DNA of 16,625 bases from a virus. Shown here piece by piece: positions 1 through 16,625 of the stretch. Every line of letters begins with the position of its first letter. Position 1 is the first letter of the stretch. The notes beneath the pieces are model-generated. The model searched no databases, was not told the DNA's origin, and saw only the letters and a list, made by a program, of their open reading frames with translations. The position numbers and the translations under genes are program-made. The stretch lies in the UHGV virus genome UHGV-1607792; one strand, given 5' to 3'.

Positions 1-332
1 CCTGCAACAGTCACGCCAAGCACTGTGCCACTTGCAGTGCCGCCAGTACTGCCAAGCACAAGTTTTTGTGCATTTGTGACACATTTCAATGTTGCAATAG
101 TGCCACCATTTGACGCAATGTTTGTAGATGCAACTGTAGCTCGTATAGTTTCACCAGGAGACTCTTGCAATACTGCACAGTTTTCAGTTACTACTGGTGA
201 ACCTGTAGTTGTTTGTGCAGTAAAGCTGCCAGACCTGTTGTTTCGACCAGTATGCACAGATGCTTTGACAGACAACTGTGAGTTGCCTGTGCCAACATCA
301 GGTGTGACTGTCAACCAAGTAGGCTTTGCCAT
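1..332 (-). CDS. BACON-like/Ig-like domain protein, N-terminal 110 codons only (3' end lies beyond window start)
   Basis: Not in ORF track because it has no stop in the window. ATG at 330-332 (minus) opens a frame with no stop to position 1: MAKPTWLTVTPDVGTGNSQLSVKASVHTGRNNRSGSFTAQTTTGSPVVTENCAVLQE... The W-L-T-V ... R-x-G-x-F-T ... V-L-Q pattern matches the BACON-type signature seen in the 761-aa protein. Same strand as all other genes, 55 nt after the stop of the upstream gene. Confidence 0.6.
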   Translation of the reverse strand, partial: MAKPTWLTVTPDVGTGNSQLSVKASVHTGRNNRSGSFTAQTTTGSPVVTENCAVLQESPGETIRATVASTNIASNGGTIATLKCVTNAQKLVLGSTGGTASGTVLGVTVA

Positions 333-387
333 TTTATGTCGTTTTGTTATTTTCTGTGATATTTACACACACAATGTAACTTGCATT

Positions 388-2316
388 TTATCGAACATGC
401 CAAAGAGTGTTCGACTTCACATTGACAGAGCTCTTAAAGTTATTATGACTGCACAACCAAACATGTGACTTATCAAGTTCTGCATAGGCATCTGACTTTA
501 AGAATGCTTCAGAAGATTTGCTTGTCTGTTGCTTTGTCATTGATGCATCACCTACAAGCATCGCAGTTGAGCCTTTGTACACTTGTTGTGCATCATCTGC
601 AATCAACGTAGCTTCAAATGGCTGTTGCTGCATAAGCAATGCAAGTGTAGACCGACATGAATCTTTGTCTACTCTTATATGTGTAATTTTGCCGGCAAAA
701 CCATACAGCTGAACAATGTCTGAGTCATTTGACCAGTCATGCAAAATTGATGTAGACTTAACAACTTCTGTCAAAATTTGCATGTCATTAACTACAGTAG
801 ATGTCGACAAACTCAGTACAAGTTCAACGTCACCATTGTCAAGATTGCGTAGTCTAATGACTACACCGTTCCAGCTCTTGCAAATCTTATCATCTACGCT
901 TGCTAAGCTTTCGCCAGTTTTGACATCAAGCACATGCAACAAGCCAGATGACACTACAAGCATCAATCTGCCAAGTCGCATCAGTTGCCATGATGCTGCT
1001 TGAGCTTTTGCGTTGTCTTCAAGCATAAACAAGCAACATGCAGACCAATCTGACACATCAAGCGATTTAACATACTCAACTGCGATGTTATTGCCAACTG
1101 CGTTCATGTCATAGAACGCAGCAGACACTGGCACATATTTGAACGACAGCGGTGATTCATTTACACTGACTGCTTTATGAATGAATCTGCGATTAGTCTC
1201 ATACATGCTCAAGTCGACATGCATGTCATTAACAAACATATTGAGAGCAATGTCTTCGACTTGTTCAGTTGCAACTTTGTCTGCATCAAAAGCATCGAAT
1301 GTTTGTGTGAGCTCGTCCAAATTAAGTATCTCTTTCACATCATCAGCAACTTGCATCTTAGACTCGTCACGATATTCAGGTCGATGCTCATATGACTTCA
1401 ATGTTAGCTCATAATATGGCGTTGATAACATAATGCCATCTGGATGCTGCACAGATGCGACTTCAAGCATTCGATTTGCTATTGGCACGTAGCAATAGTC
1501 AAATTGCTGCGGCTGCTTGCCAATGCCAAATACTCGTTCATATTCTGCTTTTGGCACATGAGCTGTTATGCCTTGTTCAAAATCAATGTCAAATGCGTCA
1601 TATGTGACTTTGTTCGTGCTAAATTCATTGTCAACGACCATCAACTTCAGCCACTTAACTGCGCCAGTATGAATCAAATCATATGCACGCAATGATGCAA
1701 CACGATGTTCATCTGACACTTCATGACTAAACCAGATAACAACATGACCAAGCTGACGATTCACAGCATTTACAATGTTGTCTTGCAATGCTATAGCATC
1801 TTGCATGTGCGTGTATGGATTGTACAGATGATTGTCTGATTCAATGACAATTGATGCTTGTTTTGCTGGTGCAAAAATCTCGTCAGCATATGTGACATTG
1901 TCAACAGACTCTTCATTGACTTTGATGTCTTCAAGCACATATGAGTCATGACGAACATTTGCTGCATCTGTCCATTGCTTGCGCCATGCAATATCAACAA
2001 TCATAATGAACTTGACATGCACTGGTTCGTCCGCAGTTGCATATGCAAGTACAAACTCATTCAAATGCGTTGCAGCATCATACACAGACCCAGGCTCAGA
2101 CCACGTCTTGCCTACATCTACAGACCATTTGAACTGCACATTGAGCATTGCATGACATTGCTCAGCATTGTCGACAAGCTCAATGTTATTCAACGAGCCT
2201 TTGATATCTGCAGCAAATTCAAGATACAGCGTAGAATCTTGTCTTACGATAATGCAATCGTTATCAGCCCTTTGTGACACTGACCGCTTTGTTGATTCGT
2301 TTGATGACTTTGCCAT
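388..2316 (-). CDS. hypothetical protein, 642 aa, acidic; no recognisable motif
   Basis: Long ORF with ATG start (2314-2316) and TAA stop (388-390); same strand and composition as neighbours. Its start overlaps the end of the upstream 516-aa gene by 53 nt in another frame. Confidence 0.8.
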   Translation of the reverse strand: MAKSSNESTKRSVSQRADNDCIIVRQDSTLYLEFAADIKGSLNNIELVDNAEQCHAMLNVQFKWSVDVGKTWSEPGSVYDAATHLNEFVLAYATADEPVHVKFIMIVDIAWRKQWTDAANVRHDSYVLEDIKVNEESVDNVTYADEIFAPAKQASIVIESDNHLYNPYTHMQDAIALQDNIVNAVNRQLGHVVIWFSHEVSDEHRVASLRAYDLIHTGAVKWLKLMVVDNEFSTNKVTYDAFDIDFEQGITAHVPKAEYERVFGIGKQPQQFDYCYVPIANRMLEVASVQHPDGIMLSTPYYELTLKSYEHRPEYRDESKMQVADDVKEILNLDELTQTFDAFDADKVATEQVEDIALNMFVNDMHVDLSMYETNRRFIHKAVSVNESPLSFKYVPVSAAFYDMNAVGNNIAVEYVKSLDVSDWSACCLFMLEDNAKAQAASWQLMRLGRLMLVVSSGLLHVLDVKTGESLASVDDKICKSWNGVVIRLRNLDNGDVELVLSLSTSTVVNDMQILTEVVKSTSILHDWSNDSDIVQLYGFAGKITHIRVDKDSCRSTLALLMQQQPFEATLIADDAQQVYKGSTAMLVGDASMTKQQTSKSSEAFLKSDAYAELDKSHVWLCSHNNFKSSVNVKSNTLWHVR

Positions 2317-3814
2317 TGCGAGGATTTATGATTGCAAGTTCAATATCATAGTCGCCGATATGACGAAAATGATGTCTAAAAAGATATTTGTCAGATGTAG
2401 CTTCAATGACTCCACCAGATATTGCATTGCGATATGTGCATGTCCATTTGATGTCATGTGGAGCATAAGCATATGACAGCTCATCTGGGAAGCAGCACAC
2501 TTGACTACCAACTGTCACAGTTGCGCCATTGTCAATCTTGCAAAACCTTGTATCATTTGGTCTACGTTGCACTGCATAGTGATGCTGACATTCAAACATG
2601 TCTGATTTGATTGACAGAGTTTGCCAAGGTGATTCAATTAGATATCGAGGCTTTTGAGACTCTTCACTTACAAGTTTACAATGCAACCCAAGATTTTCAA
2701 GCTCTTCAACAAGTTGAGTGTTTGCAATGTGTAGGGTGTAGTGTTTGTCATTTGTGTGTATTTCCACATCATGCTCAGTAACATCAACGACATCTGCAAT
2801 GATTGTCGCAGGCCAATTGCCAGTCAGCTCAAAGTCATCAAATGAGAAATGCAAATCTGTTTTGACATGCAATTGTGCTCTGCTCATAGGCTCTTTGCTG
2901 TACGCATACAATGCCCATTGCATTGAATTGTCAAGCATCTGAATTTCTTGCACAGACCATGTAAACTTCACAAATTGTGAATCTGCTTGCAATTCACAGT
3001 AGTCATTGATTTGTTTGAGCAAGTCTTTAACATCTGTGTATGCAATGTTGACTTCATCTGCGTCAACTTGAACGCCATCAACATCGACAAACTCAGACAT
3101 CGACATTGCAAATGTGCCAGCACCTTCAATATCAATTTGCATGTTCAGATATGTTGAGCCGTACTGCAACAATCGCATGCAATCAGAATCAATAAGTTTG
3201 ATGTCATTCAAATGGTCAAGCCATAGAACATTTGATTGCGCCTTGTCAAGATTGTAGAGCCATTTTATGATTGAGTCGTCTTTTTTGACATTTTCTGGGT
3301 CAAACACATTTGGGTCTGGGTAACTCATGAAATCTGGCACGCCCAATGCTTTTCGTGTGCTATAGTACAATGTAGCATTGTTCATGCCTGCAATATCAAT
3401 TGACTCATCAAGCTCTTGAAGCTTTGCAGCAATTTGAGACAATGAATTGCCAGCATATGACTGCTCAAGTGAATGTAGTTTGCAGTCTGCAATAGCAATG
3501 ACGAAGTTTGCTTGCAATTCTACGATGTTCAGTGTGCGTTTGAACACTTGCACTTGACCATAGCAATCTTTAATAGTCAACACAAGTTCATATGCACCTG
3601 CAGTTGTTATGCCAAGCTTAAGATGCTGTTGAACATCAAGATACGTTCTGTCAAACACAAGCTTGCCAGATTCATCATAGATTTCATATGTAGCTTCTCT
3701 ACAATTTTGTATGAGCGCAGATAAGTCTGTGTCTTTTGATGACCATGCTGCAATTGAAATGTCTATAATTGCTACATTGTCTCTATAAAAAAGCCCTATA
3801 GGTTGTGGATTCAT
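2264..3814 (-). CDS. hypothetical protein, 516 aa; possible beta-sandwich segments at both ends (weak)
   Basis: ATG at 3812-3814, TGA at 2264-2266; begins 11 nt after the stop of the 149-aa gene. Confidence 0.8.
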   Translation of the reverse strand: MNPQPIGLFYRDNVAIIDISIAAWSSKDTDLSALIQNCREATYEIYDESGKLVFDRTYLDVQQHLKLGITTAGAYELVLTIKDCYGQVQVFKRTLNIVELQANFVIAIADCKLHSLEQSYAGNSLSQIAAKLQELDESIDIAGMNNATLYYSTRKALGVPDFMSYPDPNVFDPENVKKDDSIIKWLYNLDKAQSNVLWLDHLNDIKLIDSDCMRLLQYGSTYLNMQIDIEGAGTFAMSMSEFVDVDGVQVDADEVNIAYTDVKDLLKQINDYCELQADSQFVKFTWSVQEIQMLDNSMQWALYAYSKEPMSRAQLHVKTDLHFSFDDFELTGNWPATIIADVVDVTEHDVEIHTNDKHYTLHIANTQLVEELENLGLHCKLVSEESQKPRYLIESPWQTLSIKSDMFECQHHYAVQRRPNDTRFCKIDNGATVTVGSQVCCFPDELSYAYAPHDIKWTCTYRNAISGGVIEATSDKYLFRHHFRHIGDYDIELAIINPRNGKVIKRINKAVSVTKG

Positions 3815-3825
3815 TGTATTGCAGT

Positions 3826-4275
3826 CTATTGATGATTGTTGTTATCACACCTATTGAGCAACTGGTCATAATACGTTTGCTCTGTCTTACGCTGCTGTTC
3901 TATCAAAATGATGATTTGTTCCATCTGAATTTCAAACGCGGCGTTTTTGCGAACAAGTGCCTTATGTTGCTCAGCAGTCAATGATGCGTCAAGAATGTCC
4001 AACATATCTGCATGATATGCAGCAATAATTTTGTTGTATTGCTGCATAGCAGTTTGCAAAGACTCAAATGATTGGTCAGATAATGTTGACAAAATCTGAA
4101 CATGCATTTTGTCTGTCAAGCCAATTTTTGCTTGCAGCAAATCACGTTCTGCTGAATGCTTTCTGTCAATGTTGATGATAAACATCATCAAAATCATCAA
4201 TACAAAAGCTATGACAGTCTTATAGTTCTTGTCATCAATGAATCGCAGCAAAAATATGTCTAAAAACTTTTCCAT
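3826..4275 (-). CDS. small membrane-anchored coiled-coil protein (N-terminal TM helix, then charged helical region), 149 aa
   Basis: ATG at 4273-4275, TAG at 3826-3828. Hydrophobic stretch TVIAFVLMILMMFIINI near the N-terminus, followed by a Q/E/K/L-rich heptad-like sequence. Architecture resembles type II membrane proteins such as i-spanins; function not established. Confidence 0.7.
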   Translation of the reverse strand: MEKFLDIFLLRFIDDKNYKTVIAFVLMILMMFIINIDRKHSAERDLLQAKIGLTDKMHVQILSTLSDQSFESLQTAMQQYNKIIAAYHADMLDILDASLTAEQHKALVRKNAAFEIQMEQIIILIEQQRKTEQTYYDQLLNRCDNNNHQ

Positions 4276-4292: not shown

Positions 4293-5618
4293 TCATTCTG
4301 CGATTTCCCAGATTCGTGTTCGTTTGTTTGCTATGCTTCGTACTACCGCACTGTCACCTATGCGAACATCCCATGCTCGATTTGATGTCAATGTGATGTT
4401 CTTTGTACCACCAGGCTGTTCAAATGACAAGTTTGCTTTGTCAAGTTCAAGCAGTGGAGCCAAGTCCATGCTTTGGTCAATAAGCCAATCAAAGTACTCA
4501 GCGTCAATTTGTGTCGTGTCAATGTCTGCTTCAGTTACTACAAAAATGTCATTGAGTTTATTTGGTCTAACAGTGTCACCAATTGGCTCAAATGCAGTGC
4601 TTGACAGAAGCATTGTATGTGGACGAATGTAAATGATGTCTTCATCTACAAATGCATTCATATCTTTGACGACAATTTGTGCTGCAGGAGTGTATGGCTT
4701 TGACGTCACAATTTCTGCATTGTCTGAGCCATACAAATACCGAGCCATGTAGGATGCAAAAACATCAATGCTGACATCTGCAAAATGAATGTGCTCTGGC
4801 AAAAAGACATCTTCAAGAATCATGACAAGATACTGCAGCTTCAGCAACAAATCTTGATTGTCTGCCATGTTCTTGACAAATTCAGGCATGCCACAGTTCA
4901 GATATTTGCCAGATGCTTCATTGTATTCATAAGTCAGTTGCAGCAAATTTGTGCGCTTATACATGCCTGCGTATGGCGAAATGTCATCTTGCAATGGCAA
5001 CAATGTTCTGTTGTTGCCATCAAGTGATTTGAGCACTTCATAGATGCGAACAGCTTCACTGTAGCCAAGCCAGTCTAATGCAGCATGCAACCCATTGTAT
5101 GTACCAAGCTTGCTGTCAATGTCATCTCGTCGTATAAGCCACTCTCTTGCTTTGCTATTCTGCAATATGAAGTCAACGACATCTTGTCGAATGTCATTCA
5201 GCATCAATGCTTTGTTGTAGTACTCAAGATAGTCATGACCCATATTAGACATCATGACAAGCAAACGTTCATCCGCATCAACTACTGTAGCAGTCACATT
5301 GATATGCAATGCAATGCCATCAACGACAACTTCAATTGCACAAACGTTATTGCCAACATCGACAGCATTGAATATGATATTTGCAATCATATCATCGTTG
5401 ACAAGATGTCGAGTAGTCTTATCTACAAGCAGCAATTCATTATTATCGTCAACCGCAAAGAAACTCAATGCAGACGATAGCAATCTGACTGTGCATTCAA
5501 CATTGTCTGCAAACAATGATGCAATGTTGTATGTGCCCTTTGACACATTGCCAAGCTCTATGTTAGCGCCATCATAGATGCGCTTGCCGAATCTGTCAAA
5601 AATGTTTATTGCAGCCAT
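4293..5618 (-). CDS. hypothetical protein, 441 aa
   Basis: ORF track extends to 5642 from a TTG; the first ATG is 8 codons in (MAAINIFDRF...), giving end 5618. It sits 1 nt after the TAA of the upstream small ORF (TAA-C-ATG). TGA stop at 4293-4295. Confidence 0.8.
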   Translation of the reverse strand: MAAINIFDRFGKRIYDGANIELGNVSKGTYNIASLFADNVECTVRLLSSALSFFAVDDNNELLLVDKTTRHLVNDDMIANIIFNAVDVGNNVCAIEVVVDGIALHINVTATVVDADERLLVMMSNMGHDYLEYYNKALMLNDIRQDVVDFILQNSKAREWLIRRDDIDSKLGTYNGLHAALDWLGYSEAVRIYEVLKSLDGNNRTLLPLQDDISPYAGMYKRTNLLQLTYEYNEASGKYLNCGMPEFVKNMADNQDLLLKLQYLVMILEDVFLPEHIHFADVSIDVFASYMARYLYGSDNAEIVTSKPYTPAAQIVVKDMNAFVDEDIIYIRPHTMLLSSTAFEPIGDTVRPNKLNDIFVVTEADIDTTQIDAEYFDWLIDQSMDLAPLLELDKANLSFEQPGGTKNITLTSNRAWDVRIGDSAVVRSIANKRTRIWEIAE

Positions 5619-5619: not shown

Positions 5620-5850
5620 TTACAGTTTCTTATCAATGTCAAAGTATGACGTAAAGCGATTCACAAATTCAACAAACAAAATCGACAATGCATCACACAT
5701 GCCAATGAGAGTTGACACGCCAAAATACGCTGCAACTCTTGTGCTCTTATTGAACACTACTCTACTATATACGCCACTCTGCCATGATGGCTTTGCAGTG
5801 ACAAGCATTGATTGCTTGATTTTGTCTCTTGTTGTGAAATTTGATTGCAT
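5620..5850 (-). CDS. small hydrophobic protein, 76 aa (one predicted TM-like segment, charged C-terminus)
   Basis: ATG at 5848-5850, 9 nt after a tandem TGA-TGA at the end of the 577-aa frame; its TAA stop lies 1 nt before the next ATG. Tight coupling on both sides supports it being real. Hydrophobic core VAAYFGVSTLIGMCDALSILFVEFV. Confidence 0.55.
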   Translation of the reverse strand: MQSNFTTRDKIKQSMLVTAKPSWQSGVYSRVVFNKSTRVAAYFGVSTLIGMCDALSILFVEFVNRFTSYFDIDKKL

Positions 5851-5862: not shown

Positions 5863-7473
5863 TCAACATTCTACGTACGAGCCATCAGTGTTTTCAACAA
5901 GCACTTTGATGCTCAAGCCTACATCTGTGCCAGCTTGGCTTCTGATAAGTGGCACAATGTCTTTTGATTGTGGCGCAATGTTGCCCATATTATCAATGTG
6001 CTCGTCATTGCCAATGAACTGCACATCTACTGATTTGATGACATCAAGCTCTTCAAGTTTTGCGATTGCAGCAGAACGACTAACGAATGTCGATGCATTT
6101 GACCATGAGTCTTCTACAAATGCTTTTGCAGCATCAAGCAATTGCTGCTTGACGTCTTCTATGTTTTGCAGTACTGCAGTCTTTTTGACAAGAATGAGCA
6201 TTTGATAAAATTCAAGCTGCACAGTGTCAAATTGCACATCAGTTAGCAACACATAGTCACCAGTGTTTTCGATAGCATTGTTCAGATATTGTCTATCTGT
6301 AGAGTCGATAGTGAATTCTGCTATTGGCAATGACCAGTAGTCATACACTATTGAGCCTGCTTTGACATACTTGTCTGCAATGTTGGGCACCAACACGACA
6401 TGAATTGTTTGAGTCTCTGTATTTGACCAGACATCAAGTATCTTGTACTGACCAAAGCGTGACATGAATGCTCTGATTGAATCTGCTGAGTGCAACACAA
6501 GTGCCCTGTTAATTGAGCCTGCATGTGAACGTATAGATTCGATGTCTTCACCATTGTAACCACCTACAATGTCTGTCAACTGTTCAATGACTAATACACC
6601 CTTTGGACTTACTGCAGTAGTGTTTGCATCATACATGCCATTGACCCATTCAAATGTTGCATCATTGTCAATCAAAATGTTTCCTGCATAGCCCTCACAT
6701 GCAGTGTATTCTACATTGACGACTGCATTTTGTGCAGGAATTTGACCAGCAGTACCATTGCCAAACACAATCTGTAGTTTGCCATCATATGACCAGCGTT
6801 CAATGTACCCCTTGCTGTATCGGTCCATTTCATCAAACCCTGCATAGCGAGTCCACAGCTCATTGCCAACTGTGACAGTCAATGAATCTTCAGATACAAT
6901 CAAGTTGCGTTCTTCGATAGTGAATGTTGTCATTGACTCACCATCAGAAATATATTGCTGAGACTTGCGTTCACCTTGTCTAACTGCGAATTCATATCGT
7001 ACACCAGTCAACTCATTGTTGATGTTGAGTTGCGCAAAGTCTTGATGCATATCGATGTAGTACATCAGCGAGTTCTCTTTGCATTTAATTGCTGCGTATC
7101 GTTTAATGAACACAGTTGGACCAAGCTCTTTGACTGCGTCATATGAAAAACTCAATGCAATTTTGCCCGATGCTGCAATGCCACCAACACATTTGTAACA
7201 TGCAAGCTGTGCAAGTCCTCGTACAGATGCGGTCTGTTCTGCAGTAAGCAAGTTGTTTTCTTTTGTGCCTACTACAATTTGCGTAAAGATGAGTGACGCA
7301 AGTTCTCTGAAACTCTGAACAAGAATTCCAAAAATTGTGTACTTACCATATTGTTTCTTTGTAGAGTTCAGCAAATTCTGCAGCCAAGTATCTATAGACT
7401 GTGACACACCTGAATATGACATCTGCATTTTCTGCATCCATGTCATATTGTCACGAGTGTTATTTGTGCGCAT
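5863..7473 (-). CDS. hypothetical protein, 536 aa
   Basis: ORF track starts at a TTG (7596) and translates the tandem repeats and terminator palindrome; the first ATG is 41 codons in (MRTNNTRDNMTWMQ...), at 7471-7473. A-rich leader without SD. Stop TGA at 5863-5865. Confidence 0.8.
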   Translation of the reverse strand: MRTNNTRDNMTWMQKMQMSYSGVSQSIDTWLQNLLNSTKKQYGKYTIFGILVQSFRELASLIFTQIVVGTKENNLLTAEQTASVRGLAQLACYKCVGGIAASGKIALSFSYDAVKELGPTVFIKRYAAIKCKENSLMYYIDMHQDFAQLNINNELTGVRYEFAVRQGERKSQQYISDGESMTTFTIEERNLIVSEDSLTVTVGNELWTRYAGFDEMDRYSKGYIERWSYDGKLQIVFGNGTAGQIPAQNAVVNVEYTACEGYAGNILIDNDATFEWVNGMYDANTTAVSPKGVLVIEQLTDIVGGYNGEDIESIRSHAGSINRALVLHSADSIRAFMSRFGQYKILDVWSNTETQTIHVVLVPNIADKYVKAGSIVYDYWSLPIAEFTIDSTDRQYLNNAIENTGDYVLLTDVQFDTVQLEFYQMLILVKKTAVLQNIEDVKQQLLDAAKAFVEDSWSNASTFVSRSAAIAKLEELDVIKSVDVQFIGNDEHIDNMGNIAPQSKDIVPLIRSQAGTDVGLSIKVLVENTDGSYVEC

Positions 7474-7498
7474 ATCAGTTAATTTGTTTGTATATGTA

Positions 7499-7572: not shown

Positions 7573-7603
7573 AAAAAGAAGAGCTTGCATATGCAAGCTC
7601 TTC
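7573..7603 (-). terminator. intrinsic (Rho-independent) terminator candidate
   Basis: Perfect 26-bp palindrome gaagagcttgcat|atgcaagctcttc (7578-7603), giving an 11-bp stem and ATAT loop, followed on the minus-strand transcript by UUUUUGUG. About 43 nt downstream of the 127-aa gene stop. Confidence 0.7.
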
Positions 7604-7645
7604 CATCGCCAAAACCTATCTAATTATGGAAACACCTCTGAAAGG

Positions 7646-8029
7646 TCAAATTATGAATCGTTTTGTGATTGGCCTGAAGTCTTCTGGCAAATCATAACGT
7701 TTTGTGATTGTTACATCGCAAACAAGCAAATCGTTCATTTGTGTAGCAGATTTTGTAATGAAACAGTTGACAGACCATTCAAACAAATGCTGCGTAACGC
7801 TATAGTTTTTGAGTGCTGTAATGATATGTGATTGAATTGTTGCTGTCGAAATGCTTCTGTGATAAAGCGCAGCATCAATCTTCTCGACATCAAACATAAT
7901 GTCAATTTCATTCAAAAAGACGCGCAATGAATCAGTTGTTTGCAATTCATCATCTTCTTGAGTTTCTACAAAGTCAATGCCTTGCAGCTCTTGTGACATT
8001 TGTGATGTATCGAAACGATTATCTGACAT
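7646..8029 (-). CDS. hypothetical protein, 127 aa
   Basis: ATG at 8027-8029, 6 nt after the TAG of the 436-aa gene; TGA at 7646-7648; followed on the minus strand by a hairpin plus U-tract terminator. Confidence 0.7.
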   Translation of the reverse strand: MSDNRFDTSQMSQELQGIDFVETQEDDELQTTDSLRVFLNEIDIMFDVEKIDAALYHRSISTATIQSHIITALKNYSVTQHLFEWSVNCFITKSATQMNDLLVCDVTITKRYDLPEDFRPITKRFII

Positions 8030-9348: not shown

Positions 9349-9783
9349 TTATAAAATTGTCAATCGATGCTCTGCATCAGTTTGCTCACTGTTAAATGTC
9401 ACTGTCACTGAGTGCTCAGTGTCATTGAAACTTGCAATGCATTCATGCTCAATGCCTGCAATTCGCAAATGCACATCAGCAAAAGTCTTGTCAATTGTTG
9501 ATTTGATGACATACACATATTGCGGTGCTTGTGCTTCAAGTCGAGTAACAGTCACATACTGATTGTCTACTTGCTCTTCACTATTTACAAGCTCAGTCAA
9601 TGTTGGCTTTACTACACTGACATGTGCAAACTGCAATGCTTTAAGTACTGCTTTGCTTCTTGAATCTACTTGTTGCTGATTTGACACCAGCAGTTTGATT
9701 GCAGAGTATGGTGTCTCTACATTAGCATCAATAGTATTGAGTGCAATAGGCTTTACAGTAGCCAAAAATTCTGCAAGTGTCAT
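9349..9783 (-). CDS. hypothetical protein, 144 aa
   Basis: ATG at 9781-9783, 1 nt after the TAA of the 176-aa frame; TAA at 9349-9351. Confidence 0.7.
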   Translation of the reverse strand: MTLAEFLATVKPIALNTIDANVETPYSAIKLLVSNQQQVDSRSKAVLKALQFAHVSVVKPTLTELVNSEEQVDNQYVTVTRLEAQAPQYVYVIKSTIDKTFADVHLRIAGIEHECIASFNDTEHSVTVTFNSEQTDAEHRLTIL

Positions 9784-9784: not shown

Positions 9785-10285
9785 TTATGAAAGCTGAGCC
9801 GTAGTGTACCAAGTTAAGTCAGATTCATTGTACGTCAATGCAATTGTAAGAGCTTGACCAAGTTGCTGTGACAATTGCTTACATGAATCAATGAATGCTT
9901 GCATATCTGCATATGACTTTGTGTAGAACATGCACCATTCTGTTGTATTGACTGCGACATTATGAACATCTGCAAGATGACAGACTTCTACAGATGATAC
10001 ATTAAAGTCTGAGCCATCTTCATCAACATGATGCACATTGTTTGCGCACCAATACTGATACAAACGAGCTTTGTCTGATGCAGTCATGTCAAACTGCATG
10101 CGTTGAGCAATTGATTCATCGACATTATCAATGAATTGCTTTGCTGACTTTGATTCAAGCATCGCATGATGCAGTGTATGATTTGCATGCCAGTCTGGAG
10201 TGCCGATTGCTACGCTAAGCTGATTTTCAAACACAAATTGTTGTGCTTGAGCTTCTTCGTAGCATTGTGTCCATGTCTTTGTCAT
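9785..10285 (-). CDS. hypothetical protein, 166 aa
   Basis: ORF track starts at a TTG (10315); the first ATG is 10 codons in (MTKTWTQCYEE...), at 10283-10285. First gene after the terminator that follows the sigma gene. Confidence 0.7.
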   Translation of the reverse strand: MTKTWTQCYEEAQAQQFVFENQLSVAIGTPDWHANHTLHHAMLESKSAKQFIDNVDESIAQRMQFDMTASDKARLYQYWCANNVHHVDEDGSDFNVSSVEVCHLADVHNVAVNTTEWCMFYTKSYADMQAFIDSCKQLSQQLGQALTIALTYNESDLTWYTTAQLS

Positions 10286-10342
10286 GTTGTTTATCTTAAG
10301 TTTGTATATGTACAAATAATGTTGATGTTGTATTGAAGCATC

Positions 10343-10384
10343 GCAAAATAAGGCCAGACTACTCGGTTGAGCTTGTCTGGCCTT
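10343..10384 (-). terminator. intrinsic terminator candidate after the sigma factor gene
   Basis: 10-bp GC-rich stem aaggccagac (10350-10359) / gtctggcctt (10375-10384), 15-nt loop, followed on the minus strand by AUUUUG. Begins 19 nt after the sigma TAG. Confidence 0.55.
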
Positions 10385-10402
10385 TCAAATGTATCTTGCT
10401 TG

Positions 10403-11299
10403 CTACAGTGTTCCGCAAAGTAATTCACGTAAATCCATGCCAGCTTGTGTGCTGTATTGAGCAATCATGTTGCGTTCAGCTTCAGACATGCTCCAATAGA
10501 TTTTGTGAAAACTGCGTTTGATAATTGTATGAATGCCAGATGTGCTACAGTTGAGCTTCTTTGCAAGTTCTGCATGAGTTAGCAAATCAGCATCGCCAAG
10601 GCCATATACATGCGTAAGTACGAGCTTTTCATTTTGTGTGAGCTGTTCAAATGCTCTTTGCAGAATCTTTGTGTTGCGTTTGTGAGCATCCTCGATTTCA
10701 AGAACTTCTTGACCTGTTTTGAAGTCTGACCTCAAATCATTCTGAACTGGCGACCATGTATCGCCATCTTTGTCAAGTGTAGTGTCATCTTTGCTGGTGA
10801 ATTGTTTGACTTCAAGAACTCTTTCATATGCTCCACGAATACCAGTAGATAATTGTTGACTTGTCAGATTGAGTTCGTCAAGCACATATTTCTTAATCCA
10901 AGGATATGCATATGTGCTAAACTTTGCTTCACGAACTCCTGCAGGCAATACGCCTTCTACGTAATTCTTGGCTGCTATTGACAATCCAAGATTGCCTGCT
11001 TGAATGACATCATCCAATGGAACCGAGCGTTTGCCAGATGCGAACCATAAGCTTCGTGCAACTGATATGACCAATCTTAAACAAGATTTGATAAGAGCTT
11101 CACGATTTTCTTGAGTCTTCTTGAATCGAGTAACATCACAATATCGCTTTGCAGTAGCCAGCGATTTGACTTCTTCAGGAGTAAGCTCATTCTCCATCCT
11201 CATTTGCTTGAGCTCTTCCTTTGTGTATAGACGTTCTCTTGTGATTCTACCTACGTCCTTTACGTAGCCTTGATTGATTTGTGAATTTGAACCTGCCAT
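10403..11299 (-). CDS. sigma-70 family RNA polymerase sigma factor, 298 aa
   Basis: Region 2 signature: LRLVISVARSL...LDDVIQAGNLGLSIAAKNY...KFSTYAYPWIKKYVLDEL, compared from memory with the E. coli RpoD segments LRLVISIAKKY / LIQEGNIGLMKAV / KFSTYATWWIRQAI. Region 4 helix-turn-helix: LTHAELAKKLNCSTSGIHTIIKRSFHKI. ATG at 11297-11299, TAG at 10403-10405. Flanked upstream by a 133-bp AT-rich gap and downstream by a GC-rich hairpin terminator. Confidence 0.85.
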   Translation of the reverse strand: MAGSNSQINQGYVKDVGRITRERLYTKEELKQMRMENELTPEEVKSLATAKRYCDVTRFKKTQENREALIKSCLRLVISVARSLWFASGKRSVPLDDVIQAGNLGLSIAAKNYVEGVLPAGVREAKFSTYAYPWIKKYVLDELNLTSQQLSTGIRGAYERVLEVKQFTSKDDTTLDKDGDTWSPVQNDLRSDFKTGQEVLEIEDAHKRNTKILQRAFEQLTQNEKLVLTHVYGLGDADLLTHAELAKKLNCSTSGIHTIIKRSFHKIYWSMSEAERNMIAQYSTQAGMDLRELLCGTL

Positions 11300-11432
11300 G
11301 GTTGTGTAACTTATTTAGTTTTAATTTGTTATATAAATTTAATCATTTTTTGTCACATATGAAAATGTTTTGCACATTATTTTCACATAAAGTGTAAAAA
11401 AGTTATGAACATTTTGTTAACACATGTAGACA
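11300..11432 (-). promoter_or_regulatory. AT-rich intergenic region upstream of the sigma gene; candidate promoter and repeated TTTTG(T)CACAT elements
   Basis: 133 bp with no ORF. On the minus strand: GTGACA (plus 11351-11356), 17 nt, TATAAC (plus 11328-11333), about 25 nt upstream of the ATG, resembling a sigma-70 -35/-10 pair (5/6 and 5/6). Three spaced copies of ttttg(t)cacat(a/t) on the plus strand. The promoter assignment is inference only. Confidence 0.4.
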
Positions 11433-13016
11433 TCAAACCATTTCATTCAACTTGTCGACATTCTTTTTAGCGTCTGCACTTTGTACAAATGCATAGACAT
11501 TATCATAGACTTTGCTAATTGCTGCATCTGTGTAATCATAGAAGCTGTGTCGAGTTCTTGAAGTTCTGCCACCTTTGATGCCAAGTGATGCTTTGTCAGA
11601 ATCTGATGGTTTCCAATATGTTCGCCCAAACCCCGTAGATAGAATCATACTTTCCACGCCAGACCTATCTCGTGGCATAGCATGTTTCAAATGGCAAGTT
11701 ACAATGAAGTCAGTTGGAAAGTCATCATAGCCAAGCTCACTTGATGCAGGTTGAATGTCAGTCTTCGTTAAGATAAGATTGCCAATGCTTGCTATGGGTC
11801 GAAGTGGGTTTCCTAATAGCAAATGCCATTCTCCGATGGCGTCGCCCTTTAGCAAGCTATTCATAACAGGAATTGCTGGTCGACCAATAGTGTTCAAGAA
11901 TTTCGCAACAGCAAAACGTTGAAATGCAAGTTTAGCAATCTGCTGCAATTTTTGTTTTGCTGCTTCTTTTCCACCTCCGCTTGCATTCATAATGTTTTGA
12001 GCAATGCCTTTGAAGAAGTCTGTGATTGAGTTGAATGAACCATCAAGCGCATCTTGAATGATTGTAGATTCAAGTTCAAGTGCTTTGTTCCAGAACACTG
12101 ATGGCTGTCCGCCAACCCAGTAGCGACCACCTCCCCAAAAACGCGCGTCATTGTATGTGCATTGCATCACATTGCTCAACAAGTCAAGCATTGCTGTTTT
12201 GGGATTGATTCCATCAATCGACTTCAATGAATAAAAGAATTTGACAGTCAATTCATGCTCAAAGTTCAAGCCGACATCACGAATATGCGTTTGTGTAATT
12301 GAATCAATTGGGCCATAGACTTTATTGTGGTCATGTGTAGGGTCTATTGACAGTCGTGCTTTGCCACGCATTTGGTCTTTTGCATACACTGGGTCCATCA
12401 ATTTTGCCACTCGGCCCATCCAGCCACTAATGCCATAATTGCCTCCACTGTCACCACGCATTTCGCCTTGCTCCAATGCAGCAGACAATTCTTTCCAACG
12501 CATGCCAAAACTGAAGCTCAACAAATCTTCAAGTTTGTTGTTTTCACCATCAAACCACGTAATCATATGAGCGATTTCAGGTGTTTGCTGAACTGTTGTG
12601 TTGAAGATGTCATCTTGACATGGCTCAGCAAATCTGCGCAATGTTATGAGTCTGTTGTTTGGGATTTGACCAAGAAATCTGCAATATGCAAAGTCTTGCC
12701 AATCGTATGTTGATGCGCCAATGGGGTTGTTAATGATATTTGCTGCAGTAGGCGTCAAGTATTGCAGGCCTTGCAAGTCTTGGTCAAAGTACACAGTTTT
12801 GCCATCAGGCAATTGCGGTGCTGCAAATAGATTCCATGCATTGAACAAAGACTGCACACCTTGTTTTGACGCATCTTCTGCGCCACGAGGCATATCAGCA
12901 TTGAGTTTCTTTTCATAAAACCCATGCTCATAGTCTGTCTCTTGTGCAAATGCACCAGTCAGTGTGCTACTATCTGCATTGAGCTTATTGTCTTTTGGCG
13001 GAGCTATTGTAGCCAT
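11433..13016 (-). CDS. hypothetical protein, 527 aa (Gly/Trp-containing; function unknown)
   Basis: ORF track starts at a TTG (13046); the first ATG is 10 codons in (MATIAPPKDNKL...), at 13014-13016. TGA at 11433-11435. Confidence 0.8.
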   Translation of the reverse strand: MATIAPPKDNKLNADSSTLTGAFAQETDYEHGFYEKKLNADMPRGAEDASKQGVQSLFNAWNLFAAPQLPDGKTVYFDQDLQGLQYLTPTAANIINNPIGASTYDWQDFAYCRFLGQIPNNRLITLRRFAEPCQDDIFNTTVQQTPEIAHMITWFDGENNKLEDLLSFSFGMRWKELSAALEQGEMRGDSGGNYGISGWMGRVAKLMDPVYAKDQMRGKARLSIDPTHDHNKVYGPIDSITQTHIRDVGLNFEHELTVKFFYSLKSIDGINPKTAMLDLLSNVMQCTYNDARFWGGGRYWVGGQPSVFWNKALELESTIIQDALDGSFNSITDFFKGIAQNIMNASGGGKEAAKQKLQQIAKLAFQRFAVAKFLNTIGRPAIPVMNSLLKGDAIGEWHLLLGNPLRPIASIGNLILTKTDIQPASSELGYDDFPTDFIVTCHLKHAMPRDRSGVESMILSTGFGRTYWKPSDSDKASLGIKGGRTSRTRHSFYDYTDAAISKVYDNVYAFVQSADAKKNVDKLNEMV

Positions 13017-13042
13017 ATCTTCAAATGTATTTAGGATATGTA

Positions 13043-13081
13043 CCAAACAAACAAAAAGCTTGACTTATTCAGTCAAGCTTT
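13043..13081 (-). terminator. terminator-like hairpin overlapping the stop codon of the 163-aa gene
   Basis: 11-bp perfect stem aaagcttgact (13055-13065) / agtcaagcttt (13071-13081) with 5-nt loop, followed on the minus strand by UUGUUUGUUUGG. The TAA of the 163-aa gene is at the stem/loop junction. Confidence 0.5.
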
Positions 13082-13556
13082 GTTCAGAAAGTTCAATAAT
13101 TTGTGTTTCGTATAGTCGTCTTAGTTCATCAAATCTTACACAGTTTTTGTCATACAGTGTAGCAAGACCTTGCAATGCTTGTTGTTTGCTTGTCCATACA
13201 ATGTCAGCAGTCAAATCCCATAACCACTTTTGTGCATAATAGAACTTCCAGTCATGCCAAAATGTTTGCGTAGTGATTTGTTGTTCTTTATCATCAATGT
13301 AGACAAAGTGATGCGTTGGATTGCCACTTTCAAGGTCTACAAATCTGAATGTTTTGTTTGCTACATGCTTAGCAATCCATTCGTCAGATGCAATGACTTC
13401 TTGCAATGCACATTGATAATAGTAACGCTTTGCAATGTCAAAGTGACGAACAACTACGCCACGAAACAATGTCCATAGCCATGGCTCTTCTTCTGAACTT
13501 CTAATCCAATAAACTTCTTGATTTACTGGTAGAAAATCGTAGTGAACGAGGTCCAT
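13065..13556 (-). CDS. hypothetical protein, 163 aa, Trp-rich
   Basis: ATG at 13554-13556, 3 nt after the TAA of the upstream gene; its own TAA (13065-13067) sits inside the loop of a terminator-like hairpin. Confidence 0.7.
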   Translation of the reverse strand: MDLVHYDFLPVNQEVYWIRSSEEEPWLWTLFRGVVVRHFDIAKRYYYQCALQEVIASDEWIAKHVANKTFRFVDLESGNPTHHFVYIDDKEQQITTQTFWHDWKFYYAQKWLWDLTADIVWTSKQQALQGLATLYDKNCVRFDELRRLYETQIIELSEQSLTE

Positions 13557-13559
13557 TGC

Positions 13560-14138
13560 TTACAGATGCACATTGACACTTGTCACAAGGTCGCAATCAA
13601 TCAATGCTTTGAGCGTGTCAATTTCATTGTAGCCAAATGCGCGTGTAGCAGCAAGCACATGATTGACATCTACTGCAGCAGTAATGTCGACTACAACAGT
13701 CTTGTCATCTTCAAGTGGCTGCAAACGCTTGATGAGTTGATGCAGCATATCGTCTGCAGGTGCGCTTAGCTGCTGTACTGGATATGCCGGTATATGCTGC
13801 ACTGGTTCAATTGGTGATGTTATTGGCGATGTAGTTGCTGGTGACACTGGTGCAATTGGTACTACATGCTGTACTGGTGCGATGACTTCAGATACAACAC
13901 TGCCATCTGCAGCAGTCGTAGATACACTTGGAATCGCAATTGGCTGAGAGAACACGTCGTCTTGAGGGCGATTCCATGTTTCAATTTCAGACAATGCATA
14001 AAGACGATTTTGACTGTCCCATGCCTTATCAGCTTCTTCGTCAATTGCAACAATTGTTCGAATTTCTGCCGTTGCTGGCCTATCGCCGTTTTCGAGCTGT
14101 TCAATGACTCTGATAGGCGCTATTGATGTTCGTGCCAT
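13560..14138 (-). CDS. hypothetical protein, 192 aa, with Pro/Val-rich low-complexity linker
   Basis: ORF track starts at a TTG (14195) inside a palindromic intergenic region; the first ATG is 19 codons in (MARTSIAPIRV...), placed at 14136-14138 by codon arithmetic from the track. Linker PVQHVVPIAPVSPATTSPITSPIEPVQHIPAYPVQQ. TAA at 13560-13562. Confidence 0.7.
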   Translation of the reverse strand: MARTSIAPIRVIEQLENGDRPATAEIRTIVAIDEEADKAWDSQNRLYALSEIETWNRPQDDVFSQPIAIPSVSTTAADGSVVSEVIAPVQHVVPIAPVSPATTSPITSPIEPVQHIPAYPVQQLSAPADDMLHQLIKRLQPLEDDKTVVVDITAAVDVNHVLAATRAFGYNEIDTLKALIDCDLVTSVNVHL

Positions 14139-14167
14139 GTTTGGATTGTTTTTTATATTGTACAATA

Positions 14168-14239
14168 TGCAAAGTGCTTTTGCACTTTGATGCAAAGTAC
14201 TGCGTACACAACATGCAATGCATAAATTTGCATTTATGC
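14168..14239. promoter_or_regulatory. palindrome cluster in the leader of the 192-aa gene
   Basis: caaagtgc-tttt-gcactttg (14170-14189) with a near-copy caaagtac (14193-14200) that could pair with the same central arm; and gcataaat-ttgc-atttatgc (14220-14239). Confidence 0.5.
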
Positions 14240-14257
14240 TGCTGTTTTACGCTGAGC

Positions 14258-14297
14258 ACCCTGCGTAAAATAGTGAAATGCTTATTTTACGCAGGGT
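14258..14297. other. perfect 15-bp inverted repeat (stem-loop) immediately downstream of the BACON-repeat gene; no U-tract on either strand
   Basis: accctgcgtaaaata (14258-14272), 10-nt loop, tattttacgcagggt (14283-14297). Coordinates confirmed against the frame of an overlapping track ORF. Possible terminator, RNA processing site or protein-binding palindrome. Confidence 0.6.
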
Positions 14298-14310
14298 ACG
14301 TCAGGTTAAA

Positions 14311-16625
14311 TTATCGTATGATGAATGGTTTGTTGGTATCTTCAATAATCATTGAGCCGATGCCATGTAACTCTTGAGTAACCTCGACAGATACGTCTTG
14401 TGCAGTGTTGTACGAGCACTTGAATGCTGCAACTCGACTAAATGCGTCAATGTCTGAGTAACTGAGTTCATCGACTTGCATTGAGATTTCACCAATTGCT
14501 GGCGTAGTCTTTGATGGTGTCATTGTGATGTCATGCAGCCAGCCCGGATTGCCAACTATGACTGCTGTCAATGATTCGCCATCAATTGGGTTGATGATTT
14601 CATAGTTGAAGCTTAAAGTCTTTGCAGTATCATCAGTTGTTGCCGATGCAGGTGTAATGTTGATTGTTGTTACGCCCTTAGCAGCTTGAACAACTTGTGC
14701 TGTGACATCTTGAGCATTGATGTGAGAGAACTTAACTGAACAACTGCGTTGTTCTGTCGTCAAGTTGCGGTCACATTCAATAGTCAAGTAGCCCCTGCCA
14801 GTATTATCGTCATATTCGAAGTTTGTATCGGTAAATGTGCCATCATTGTCAAGCACTGCATATGACAACTGCTGGCCTGCAATTGGGTTGCCAACAGTAA
14901 TTTCGAACTGTACTTGAGTATCTGTCGACTTCAATTGAGCATTCATTGGTTCGACAGTTATCGTTGACATGCCTTGAGCTGCTTGTGTGATGCTGACCGT
15001 TACATTGTCAGCAGTCATGTATGACAGTCTCAAGTATAAGTTACGAGTAGCTGTTGCAGTGTTGATGTCAAGCGCAAATTGTATTGTGCCGGCTGACATA
15101 TTAACTACAGGTTCGCCAACAAAGCCAGAGCCCTCTGTCGTAACTGTCAGTGTTTCACCTTCAATAGGGTTGATGATGCTAAAGTTAACTGTGAACGAAC
15201 CGCCATTAGCTGCTGCGTTGATTGTCAATGGTTCGGCATTGATGACTGTAGCTTCTTTAGCAGCTTGAGTAAGCAAGACTGCTACATTGTCAGCAGTTGG
15301 ATATTGCAGTACAATATTTGCTGTACGAGCAGTTGTTTGCAATGTCTTGTCATAATCAAATGTAATCTTGTCATCAGCAACTTGAACGTTGTGAATCCAG
15401 CTTTCTGTTGCATATGCAGTGACTGCTGCACCAGCAAAGCCATTACGAATTTGATATGCAATTTCAGCTGAACCACCTGCTGCATTGAGTGACATAGAGC
15501 TTGTAACAATGATTTCTGGCCTTGTTGAAACACCTGTACTGTATTGAACTACAGATGCAATTACACGAGGCTCAAATATGACAGCATTTGCAGAGCCGCC
15601 AAATGTAGGTGTTGCAATCACATAGATTGGCCAAACTCCACTTGATGCGACATTACGTAAGATTGCTTGATAATGCAGTTCATTGCATGCATCTTGCAAT
15701 TCACTCCACGTTTTTGTAGTGTCAATTGATGTCAAGCATGCTGGCAATACTGCGCATGTTGATGGCTTATCCGCATCAATGGGCATTGCATTGCCACCTG
15801 CTATTGGCTTGTAGCTCAAGTCAACTTTGACTGATGCATAGCCATTGCCATACACAATGAATGGTATAGTGATATCGAACAAAATATCGACTGTTGCAGG
15901 CATGTTCAGATATGCAGGCAGCGGTATGAGTGTTTGCATTGCTGTCGTGCCTGGTACGTGGTCATCGAATGATTCAACATACACAGGTGGTGTCAAGTCA
16001 TCTTTATGCGCATATTCTGCGTGAGTGTGGTCTGAATGCGACACTGTGCTTGCATAACCAGAACCACCAAAGTTCTTATTAAATGCAGAGCCCTTTGCTT
16101 CTTCAGTTAATCTGCCAGAGCCATCATATGACAATACTGTATTTGATGCACCGACACCTGCTGCAAGATGATTTGAGCCATCAATGAAGACATGTTTGTA
16201 TTGACGTTCAAACAAATGAGCATCAAAATTGTCAAATATCGAATTGAACAACTTTTTGACTGCAGATGCTGTAGGCAGATGTTTGTTTGCATTTGCGCCA
16301 TCGATAATGATGCTTGACCAATTGTCTGAGCTCTTGAAGATGCTAAGAAGCATATCAACAACTTTGCCAGTAGCATCTGTGCCAAGAACACTTGCACCAG
16401 GCAATTTCATCAATTGTAAGTCGACTGTTGCAGCAAGTTTAAGCAGCTGTTTTGTCAATGTCAGAATGTCTGTGACAGCACCAGCATCTGACAATGCAGC
16501 AATGCGATATGACTGATTGATGAGTTGCGCAAACTTATACGCACGAATGAATGACTCTCGCTTTGCTTCTGCATCCAAGCCTTTTGCCAAGAACAACTCA
16601 TCATATTTCAGATTTGCATATGACA
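14311..16625 (-). CDS. large repeat protein with four tandem BACON-like/Ig-like domains at the C-terminus; 5' end lies beyond window end
   Basis: The frame is open to the last base of the window; the track's start at 16596 is a TTG and upstream codons continue in frame. TAA at 14311-14313. Four homologous 50-100 aa repeats, each ending (T/N)A(D/Q)(D/N)V(T/S/A)V.(V/I/L)TQ(A/E)(A/L).G, with internal NPI(E/A/D)G and R-T/S-A motifs. Confidence 0.8.
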   Translation of the reverse strand, partial: SYANLKYDELFLAKGLDAEAKRESFIRAYKFAQLINQSYRIAALSDAGAVTDILTLTKQLLKLAATVDLQLMKLPGASVLGTDATGKVVDMLLSIFKSSDNWSSIIIDGANANKHLPTASAVKKLFNSIFDNFDAHLFERQYKHVFIDGSNHLAAGVGASNTVLSYDGSGRLTEEAKGSAFNKNFGGSGYASTVSHSDHTHAEYAHKDDLTPPVYVESFDDHVPGTTAMQTLIPLPAYLNMPATVDILFDITIPFIVYGNGYASVKVDLSYKPIAGGNAMPIDADKPSTCAVLPACLTSIDTTKTWSELQDACNELHYQAILRNVASSGVWPIYVIATPTFGGSANAVIFEPRVIASVVQYSTGVSTRPEIIVTSSMSLNAAGGSAEIAYQIRNGFAGAAVTAYATESWIHNVQVADDKITFDYDKTLQTTARTANIVLQYPTADNVAVLLTQAAKEATVINAEPLTINAAANGGSFTVNFSIINPIEGETLTVTTEGSGFVGEPVVNMSAGTIQFALDINTATATRNLYLRLSYMTADNVTVSITQAAQGMSTITVEPMNAQLKSTDTQVQFEITVGNPIAGQQLSYAVLDNDGTFTDTNFEYDDNTGRGYLTIECDRNLTTEQRSCSVKFSHINAQDVTAQVVQAAKGVTTINITPASATTDDTAKTLSFNYEIINPIDGESLTAVIVGNPGWLHDITMTPSKTTPAIGEISMQVDELSYSDIDAFSRVAAFKCSYNTAQDVSVEVTQELHGIGSMIIEDTNKPFIIR
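14362..15405 (-). repeat. tandem array of four protein-level repeats (BACON-like beta-sandwich modules) inside the 761-aa CDS
   Basis: Approximate residues 398-745 of the track protein. Repeat ends: ...NVAVLLTQAAKE / ...NVTVSITQAAQG / ...DVTAQVVQAAKG / ...DVSVEVTQELHG. Repeat starts: ATVINAEP / MSTITVEP / VTTINITP. Diverged at nucleotide level. Confidence 0.6.

Follow-up and report, generated by a model that had tools for sequence, protein, structure and literature searches.

Start codons without Shine–Dalgarno sequences in the structural gene block of an uncultured tailed phage with a probable Bacteroidota host

Every start codon in the 16,625-nt window analyzed here (the whole 16.6-kb contig UHGV-1607792, with coordinates counted from its first letter) lacks a Shine–Dalgarno (SD) sequence. 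The window very probably derives from an uncultured tailed phage of ∼175 kb, belonging to the PAU/pT24/MA9V clade and infecting Bacteroidota, in which a structural block is translated independently of SD, with two routes of start selection. Its 16 genes are all encoded by the minus strand (Table 1) and form a late/structural block, whose products include BACON-like surface proteins and a phage sigma factor besides the baseplate wedge and a neck-like protein. Fifteen start codons fall inside the window, that of gene 1 lying outside, and hence the start statistics refer to a small sample (n = 15). Six genes have real intergenic leaders, and nine starts are coupled, meaning that the ATG lies at most 17 nt from, or overlaps, the end of the preceding gene. 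Scans for tRNAs and Rfam families returned no matches in the window.

Table 1. Genes and putative regulatory elements of the window, with the sequence context of each start
Feature	Position	Strand	Product, matches and remarks	Start context	SD
Gene 1	14311..16623	-	Large structural protein, 5'-truncated at window edge (full-length frame runs on upstream in L003); BACON-like repeat below threshold
Gene 2	13560..14138	-	192 aa; first gene after terminator and promoter-like site	Leader AAAAAACAATCCAAAC-ATG, 60% A	None
Gene 3	13065..13556	-	163 aa; phrog_28303	Coupled; TAA 3 nt before ATG (TAAGCA-ATG)	None
Gene 4	11433..13016	-	527 aa; virion-module protein conserved clade-wide	Leader ...AAATACATTTGAAGAT-ATG	None
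Gene 5	10403..11299	-	298 aa; phage sigma-70-family factor; Pfam Sigma70_r2 and r4, TIGR02937 (67 bits)	Leader AAAACTAAATAAGTTACACAACC-ATG	None
Gene 6	9785..10285	-	166 aa	Leader ACAAACTTAAGATAAACAAC-ATG	None
Gene 7	9349..9783	-	144 aa	Coupled (TAA-T-ATG); upstream A only 28%	None
Gene 8	8036..9346	-	436 aa; MA9V-2 homologue	Coupled (TAA-CA-ATG); TTTTATAACA-ATG	None
Gene 9	7646..8029	-	127 aa	Coupled; TAG 6 nt upstream	None
Gene 10	5863..7473	-	536 aa; baseplate wedge-like; phrog_219 (2.7e-22)	Leader ACAAACAAATTAACTGAT-ATG	None
Gene 11	5620..5850	-	76 aa	Upstream stop 12 nt before ATG	None
Gene 12	4293..5618	-	441 aa; phrog_28177	Coupled (TAA-C-ATG); AAGAAACTGTAAC-ATG	None
Gene 13	3826..4275	-	149 aa	Spacer 17 nt, AATAAGCA-ATG	None
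Gene 14	2264..3814	-	516 aa	Spacer 11 nt, ACTGCAATACA-ATG	None
Gene 15	388..2316	-	642 aa; neck/head-closure-like; phrog_679, weak T4 neck-protein match, homologous to MA9V-2 'neck protein'	Start overlaps gene 14 by 53 nt	None
Gene 16	3..332	-	3'-truncated at window edge; 1442 aa in L003; BACON-like domain N-terminal	Leader AGAAAATAACAAAACGACATAAA-ATG, 68% A	None
Promoter-like motif TACATATAC	7490..7498	-	16 nt upstream of gene 10 ATG
Promoter-like motif TACATATAC	10304..10312	-	18 nt upstream of gene 6 ATG
Promoter-like motif TACATATCC	13034..13042	-	17 nt upstream of gene 4 ATG
Weaker motif variant TACAATATA	14154..14162	-	15 nt upstream of gene 2 ATG; by eye
Terminator-like hairpin	7577..7604	-	12-bp stem then TTTTTG; between genes 9 and 10; holds false start 7590
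Terminator-like hairpin	13055..13081	-	11-bp stem then T-rich tail; gene 3 end
Terminator-like perfect inverted repeat	14258..14297	-	15 bp; after gene 1
Hairpin AAAGGCCAGAC...GTCTGGCCTT then ATTTTG	10344..10385 (approximate)	-	After sigma gene; by eye

To score SD sequences, we computed duplexes with the 16S rRNA 3' tail (ACCUCCUUU) within positions −20 to −2, taking ΔG ≤ −4.4 kcal/mol as the threshold, and also looked for a GGAG, GAGG or AGGA core. By either measure the count is 0/15, as the preliminary description of this DNA had stated in reporting no GGAGG-like sequence at its ATG codons; the four contexts that it quoted are present verbatim on the minus strand (starts 10285, 5618, 14138 and 9346). 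The mean duplex energy is +0.33 kcal/mol at starts versus −1.10 for the coding-strand background (Mann–Whitney P = 0.0024), indicating that start regions are less SD-like than the rest of the strand. AGGAGG was sought on both strands of the window and is absent. With an annotation-free gene finder the picture is unchanged. The same test applied to phage T4, as a positive control, found SD sequences at 27 of 40 starts (68%; Fisher P = 4.6e-6 versus the window).

The scan of upstream regions that had been proposed for weighing anti-SD complementarity against A-richness thus yields no SD, and it reveals a clear bias in composition. Nucleotides −20 to −1 contain 47% A, compared to 32% overall (P = 4e-8), and 10% G, compared to 21% (P = 6e-7). 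The earlier claim of A-rich leaders holds on average and for the six genes with intergenic leaders (mean 55% A); it does not hold for the nine coupled starts (mean 39%, with the lowest single cases at 28%). By position, A reaches 53–60% at −13 to −10 and 60% at −16 and −15. At −3, A is found in 10 and G in 5 of the 15 starts, making this position invariably purine (P = 7e-5), and G never occurs at −1, −2 or −4. A recurrent AAC-ATG context had also been described. In the window alone it occurs at only 3/15 starts, and the purine at −3 is the stronger rule; when two ∼50%-identical relatives are added, AAC-ATG is found at 10/44 starts against a background of 4.4%, a significant excess (P = 1.8e-5).

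Start regions in the window are also weakly structured. The predicted minimum free energy of folding for −20 to +20 is −1.86 kcal/mol at starts versus −5.71 kcal/mol at internal positions (P = 7e-8). Competing ATG trinucleotides within 20 nt on either side of starts number 6, compared to 17.4 expected (Poisson P = 0.0016).

These properties resemble the 'Kozak-like' start regions of Bacteroidia (Baez et al. 2019, PMC6847099; Jha et al. 2021, PMC7797042), for which the former study reports four hallmarks: adenine at −3, adenines clustered near −14 to −11, low structure and AUG depletion. All of these are measured here, together with the lack of SD, and they support the SD-independent initiation originally proposed for this DNA. 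In the clade pool, A peaks at −13, −12 and −11 (65, 62 and 58%) and at −3 (60%), matching the pattern described for Flavobacterium johnsoniae in the 2019 study. One difference is that the subfamily prefers C at −1 and AAC, which are not among the F. johnsoniae determinants in the available account. For A at −6, which is such a determinant, the picture is less clear: its frequency is only 40% among the 15 window starts and 50% for the pooled clade, no distinct excess over the mean of the leader. A at −3 is favored in T4 too (70%), but T4 also shows a G peak at −11 to −8 along with its SD sequences, and the window has neither.

Two IMG/VR genomes, IMGVR_UViG_3300045988_152288 and IMGVR_UViG_3300045988_149023 (174,628 and 175,564 bp), are 95–97% identical to the window. 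An exact-pattern walk along the UViG sequence added only ∼4 kb. A megablast search of 50,697 phage records with the entire window gave no match. The gene 4 protein, used as a clade marker, has 825 homologues, including pT24 gp182, MA9V-2_071 and PAU gp269; a PDB profile search with this family found nothing. Marker proteins are shared with the jumbo myoviruses PAU, pT24, PTm1 and MA9V and, more distantly, with the Prevotella Lak megaphages. The jumbo phages resemble the window in their collinear module with sigma factor and neck protein, their SD-less starts and their (A/G)TACATATA motif. They differ in genome size (213–235 kb versus ∼175 kb), and protein identity to the window is only 25–45%, with no DNA-level match in the phage collection; of the markers, gene 4 stands at 39–46% in pT24, PTm1, MA9V and PAU, and the baseplate wedge protein at 22–26%. 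Gene order is collinear with ∼50%-identical relatives and in part, over six genes, with MA9V-2. GATC and CTAG sites are almost wholly avoided in the window, a feature only partly common to PAU/pT24-like phages (pT24 lacks GATC).

A Bacteroidota host had been suggested on the basis of start contexts and BACON-like repeats. The repeats themselves are marginal: the gene 1 and gene 16 matches to BACON (PF13004) reach 23.3 and 24.0 bits, respectively, just under the Pfam gathering cut-off of 25. In UViG_149023, which is ∼97% identical over its overlap with the window, a neighboring gene passes at 34 bits, so this domain type is present in the phage although the copies in the window fall below threshold. 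The host suggestion is supported at the level of phylum. The cultured relatives found through two marker proteins all have Bacteroidota hosts, save for three weaker hits of the second marker, to phages of Bacteroides and of two genera outside Bacteroidota, Nitratidesulfovibrio and Desulfovibrio. These relatives are phages of Tenacibaculum (pT24, PTm1 and PTm5), Chryseobacterium (MA9V-1 and MA9V-2) and Flavobacterium (MaF61), the Lak phages of Prevotella, and PAU, described as a 'Sphingomonas' phage. The strain on which PAU grows, HER1398, was shown to be a Sphingobacterium (PMC3738902), so that PAU could not serve as the intended control for an SD-using host inside the clade.

Scarcity of SD sequences alone is not unique to Bacteroidota, and a host from another SD-poor lineage (e.g. 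Cyanobacteria, Mycoplasmatota, Patescibacteria or archaea with leaderless mRNAs) was considered. The SD-poor cyanophage P-SSM2, for instance, has SD at 14 of 51 starts (27%). The window (P = 0.028) and the clade as a whole, with SD at 2 of 217 starts (P = 1.4e-9), fall far below this control, and upstream composition differs as well (G 10% versus 17%; A 47% versus 38%). A profile scan of genome contigs with gene 4 gave 14 distant hits (29–37% identity) in bins of metagenome-assembled genomes (MAGs) whose labels disagree, most being Firmicutes and some Bacteroidales (Romboutsia, Erysipelotrichaceae, Clostridia, Muribaculaceae and others). These mixed labels might favor another host. Some of the bins are single contigs of 400 kb, presumably megaphages, and we rejected the hits as host evidence. 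Given the A peaks at −13 to −11 and −3, which fit Bacteroidia, the hosts of the examined cultured relatives and the BACON-like domains, an SD-poor host outside Bacteroidota seems very unlikely.

A second alternative is that SD absence is a trait of the phage lineage, caused for instance by late transcripts with short leaders or by a phage factor, and that it has little bearing on the host. All clade members examined lack SD, including relatives in Firmicutes-labelled bins; the clade encodes its own sigma factor; and a conserved promoter-like motif 17–28 nt before starts implies very short leaders. Because no clade member with an SD-using host was found, effects of host and lineage are inseparable within the clade. 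The two are confounded rather than in conflict, however, since members with experimentally known hosts all grow on Bacteroidota and the sole apparent exception, PAU, disappears upon reclassification of its host. The Firmicutes-labelled bins include the 400-kb single contigs, in our reading Lak-like megaphages that received a bacterial label. Moreover, phages need host ribosomes, and SD is missing from the nine coupled internal genes as well, even though leader length is not limiting there. We therefore regard a lineage trait unrelated to the host as highly improbable, and favor a Bacteroidota host.

SD sequences could also be missed if starts were mis-set, as the preliminary description had recognized. 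Among alternative start codons, only 4/183 have SD-like complementarity, fewer than in the background, and all four would cut off conserved sequence. Alignments with orthologues run from the first residue of the proteins as called here, and protein lengths agree. For gene 2, the L026 and L028 alignments begin at the called start. For gene 5, the L026 alignment runs from residue 1, and start 11299 is supported because the sigma models match from residue ∼14–35. Of the 15 starts, the collection's gene calls had misplaced one, that of gene 10, at 7590, which lies inside the loop of a terminator hairpin. We corrected it to 7473, from whose first residue orthologues of 540 and 542 aa align; the corrected start has no SD either. 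An artefact of mis-set starts, or of a low G+C content (41%, with an A-rich coding strand) that by itself makes GGAGG rare, is thus extremely unlikely, considering the sub-background complementarity at starts and the 68% SD usage of T4 at an even lower G+C content (36%).

On the coding strand, the motif (A/G)TACATATA precedes late-gene ATGs by 17–28 nt, not only in the window but also in ∼50%-identical relatives and even in PAU; upstream of the gene 10 orthologues of L026, L028 and PAU it is the same as in the window (TACATATAC). One tentative reading is that the motif is a late promoter common to the clade and read with the phage sigma factor. This would give unusually short (∼10–20 nt) A-rich leaders, such that transcript 5' ends and an unstructured start region would largely set start choice. 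Only the gene 4 leader (TACATTTG) fits, by eye, the sigma-A −7 consensus of Bacteroides, TAnnTTTG. We also noted a 13-nt perfect inverted repeat (7463–7475 and 7563–7575) that could sequester the baseplate gene ATG in read-through transcripts. We rejected it as functional, because its upstream arm carries two uncompensated changes in L002, a close relative, and it is absent from L026 and L028.

[quoted passage not shown] In Bacteroidia, the 16S rRNA 3' tail is sequestered by bS21, bS18 and bS6 (PMC7797042, PMC13000453). With the tail unavailable, we propose, starts would therefore be selected in two other ways. The six promoter-proximal genes may rely on a short, A-rich, G-poor and essentially unfolded leader, with a purine at −3, adenines clustered around −16 to −10 and few competing AUGs. 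The nine closely packed genes probably depend on coupling of termination and reinitiation. One caveat here is that Bacteroidia start regions have been studied in host genes, whereas ours are phage genes, to which the ribosomal mechanism is extended by analogy.

SD-less, A-rich starts are a known habit of Bacteroidota and their phages rather than a new phenomenon, and our results leave knowledge of translation initiation unchanged; what is added is a new member phage. SD absence was already noted for Cellulophaga baltica phages (bioRxiv 10.1101/2021.04.21.440840), which likewise mirror the SD lack of the host phylum, although they represent another lineage and their host is known, whereas here we infer it. 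The host indicated by the signature agrees with the phylogenetic neighbors, and the same test marks PAU as Bacteroidota-type, consistent with its published host reclassification. Gene callers tuned to SD sequences can misplace starts, as happened once here. The SD-less A-rich signature is hence a sound host clue, of value in annotation and host prediction for this phage and its metagenomic relatives.

In Shine-Dalgarno (SD)-dependent initiation the leader pairs with the 3′ tail of 16S rRNA (ACCUCCUUU), and we calculated the best duplex between this tail and nucleotides –20 to –2 for each of the window's 15 start codons. None of the 15 reached the threshold of –4.4 kcal/mol, none carried a GGAG, GAGG or AGGA core, and AGGAGG is absent from both strands of the window. 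Mean duplex ΔG was +0.33 at starts versus –1.10 at same-strand background positions (P = 0.0024), indicating that SD-like sequence is scarcer at starts than elsewhere. The same procedure identified SDs at 27/40 starts of phage T4 (36% G+C), with a distinct G peak at –11 to –8, and at 14/51 starts of P-SSM2, a cyanophage from an SD-poor host lineage; both differ from the window (Fisher test, P = 4.6e-6 and 0.028, respectively). Clade-wide, only 2 of 217 starts have an SD. Use of an annotation-free gene finder for all genomes left the SD result unchanged. The preliminary description, whose four quoted start contexts occur verbatim on the minus strand, was therefore right that SDs are lacking.

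One alternative is that the starts were mis-set and that the true ones carry SDs. Among alternative ATG, GTG and TTG codons in the 5′ half of the reading frames, SD-like complementarity was seen for 4/183, below background. Three of these lie in gene 4, where they would shorten the conserved protein by ∼185–205 residues; the fourth would cost the sigma factor 32 residues that sigma models and orthologues cover. Moreover, when orthologues from two ∼50%-identical metagenomic relatives (L026, L028), MA9V, PAU and PTm1/5 are aligned, the match opens at residue 1 of the chosen starts. These data argue against misplacement as the explanation. A single start was mis-set in the collection's gene calls, that of the baseplate gene at 7590, which falls inside the loop of a 12-bp terminator-like hairpin (7577–7604). 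We rejected it on account of this position and of the lengths and alignments of orthologues; the real start is 7473, which gives a protein of 536 aa (540 and 542 aa in relatives). The corrected start also has no SD, and the case illustrates how starts can be mis-called when a genome lacks SDs. ATG is the start codon in all 15 cases, GTG and TTG being unused. In 6 of the 15 genes an Ala codon, GCA or GCT, comes next; GCA is the commonest codon of the window overall (238/4413).

Start regions are enriched in A (47% versus 32% overall, P = 4e-8) and depleted of G (10% versus 21%, P = 6e-7). Predicted folding energy of the –20 to +20 region averages –1.86 kcal/mol at starts and –5.71 kcal/mol at internal positions (P = 7e-8), and ATG triplets flanking the starts on both sides number 6, compared to 17.4 expected (P = 0.0016). 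A purine occupies position –3 in every case (10 A, 5 G; P = 7e-5), and G is absent from –1, –2 and –4. The sample is small (n = 15), though every start-region test agrees in direction. In the pooled clade, A reaches 65, 62 and 58% at –13, –12 and –11, and 60% at –3. Within the window, just 3 of 15 starts have the AAC-ATG context described as recurrent; adding the two ∼50%-identical relatives brings the count to 10/44 (background 4.4%, P = 1.8e-5), with C at –1 in 52%. The AAC preference is thus real at the subfamily level.

All long reading frames lie on the minus strand, making up 16 genes, with gene 1 truncated 5′ and gene 16 truncated 3′. Terminator-like hairpins, each with a promoter-like motif after it, split this block into short operons. 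The proposal of A-rich leaders holds mainly for some of the starts. Six genes are preceded by genuine intergenic leaders, which average 55% A; leaders of these promoter-proximal genes (2, 4, 5, 6, 10 and 16) are A-rich, G-poor and unfolded. The other nine starts, 1–17 nt past the upstream gene's end or overlapping it, average 39% A (lowest, 28%), and this arrangement suggests termination–reinitiation coupling. By analogy with published work on Bacteroidia ribosomes, the anti-SD would be sequestered by bS21, bS18 and bS6, and bS1 might play a role at the A-rich block.

The promoter-like motif is nearly confined to the coding strand, mostly 17–28 nt upstream of gene starts, and also precedes orthologous genes in L026 and L028. 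In PAU there are 8 forward matches versus 1 reverse; five of the forward matches precede a start by no more than 35 nt, and four of the five are at 20–28 nt. The clade encodes its own sigma factor, and the motif may be the clade's late promoter. Direct repeats upstream of the baseplate gene, flanked by the terminator and the motif, may form a regulator-binding array.

Features of the window and their coordinates
Feature	Position	Strand	Remarks
Neck/head-closure-like protein	388-2316	minus	
Baseplate wedge-like protein	5863-7473	minus	
Sigma-70-family factor	10403-11299	minus	
Promoter-like motif (A/G)TACATATA(C/A)	7490-7498, 10304-10312, 13034-13042, 14154-14162	minus	
Three direct repeats, TTCGAATGTGCACA(C/T)ATGAGAATAG	7499-7582	plus-strand reading	~25 nt, 29-30-nt spacing
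Repeat pair similar to the TTTGCAT / ATGCAAA(G) elements	11347-11389		30-nt spacing; upstream of sigma gene
TTTGCAT / ATGCAAA(G) elements	14167-14233		direct and inverted; upstream of gene 2 promoter-like site

The window accounts for nearly all of an ENA metagenome contig (ERZ27261429:k119_176883, 16.6 kb). Scans of the window found no tRNA and no Rfam family, and megablast against the phage collection gave no match. Two IMG/VR viral genomes (174.6 and 175.6 kb) match its DNA at 95–97% identity, and the ∼50%-identical relatives, whose contigs are 41 and 179 kb long, are fully collinear with it. For both marker proteins (gene 4 and baseplate wedge-like), cultured relatives are Tenacibaculum phages pT24, PTm1 and PTm5, Chryseobacterium phages MA9V-1 and MA9V-2, Flavobacterium phage MaF61, Prevotella Lak megaphages and 'Sphingomonas' phage PAU; the second marker has three weaker extra matches, to Nitratidesulfovibrio, Desulfovibrio and Bacteroides phages.

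PAU was initially taken to have an SD-using host, which would make it a natural control; it was dropped, being SD-less (1/48) with a Sphingobacterium host. Genome sequencing showed its host, HER1398, to be Sphingobacterium (Bacteroidetes) (PMC3738902); the database record (NC_019521) still gives an alphaproteobacterial host. Its A peaks at –13 to –11 and –3 are Bacteroidia-typical, in independent agreement with the published reclassification. Given that reclassification, all cultured relatives examined, the three weaker second-marker matches aside, have Bacteroidota hosts. BACON-like repeats in two large proteins of the window are marginal, below the Pfam threshold, and exceed it in a neighboring gene of a close relative; they provide weaker supporting evidence. 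When species-representative genomes were scanned, every relative recovered was distant and sat in a MAG bin; the labels of these bins conflict, and the scan was no help on host. Two of the loci (L013, L017) are single contigs, 400 and 410 kb long, from MAGs assigned to Erysipelotrichaceae/Firmicutes; they encode the phage marker protein and lack SDs, and we interpret them as Lak-like megaphage genomes that were given a bacterial label. Together, the relatives' hosts, the clade's lack of SDs and its A peaks make the Bacteroidota host proposed earlier well supported, at the phylum level only.

GATC is absent from the window (52.5 expected), CTAG occurs once (22.8 expected), and CATG is also low (104 versus 178). 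Four loci of the two close IMG/VR relatives (L002, L003, L009, L010) have 0–1 GATC (12–64 expected) and 0–1 CTAG (7–27 expected), and 41 kb of pT24 has no GATC (120 expected). GATC avoidance was not seen in PAU, MA9V-2 or MaF61. Avoidance of restriction is the probable reason, and the pattern may be useful for narrowing down the host.

Among phages of Bacteroidetes, the lack of SDs was noted earlier for those of Cellulophaga. In the Flavobacterium johnsoniae study (Baez et al. 2019, PMC6847099), A is over-represented at –14 to –11, positions –3, –6, –12 and –13 are positive determinants, and starts show low structure and AUG depletion; the clade's pooled A pattern matches the start regions described there. 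The window presents a Bacteroidia-type start region that is already known, in a phage that is a new and uncultured addition to a known clade.
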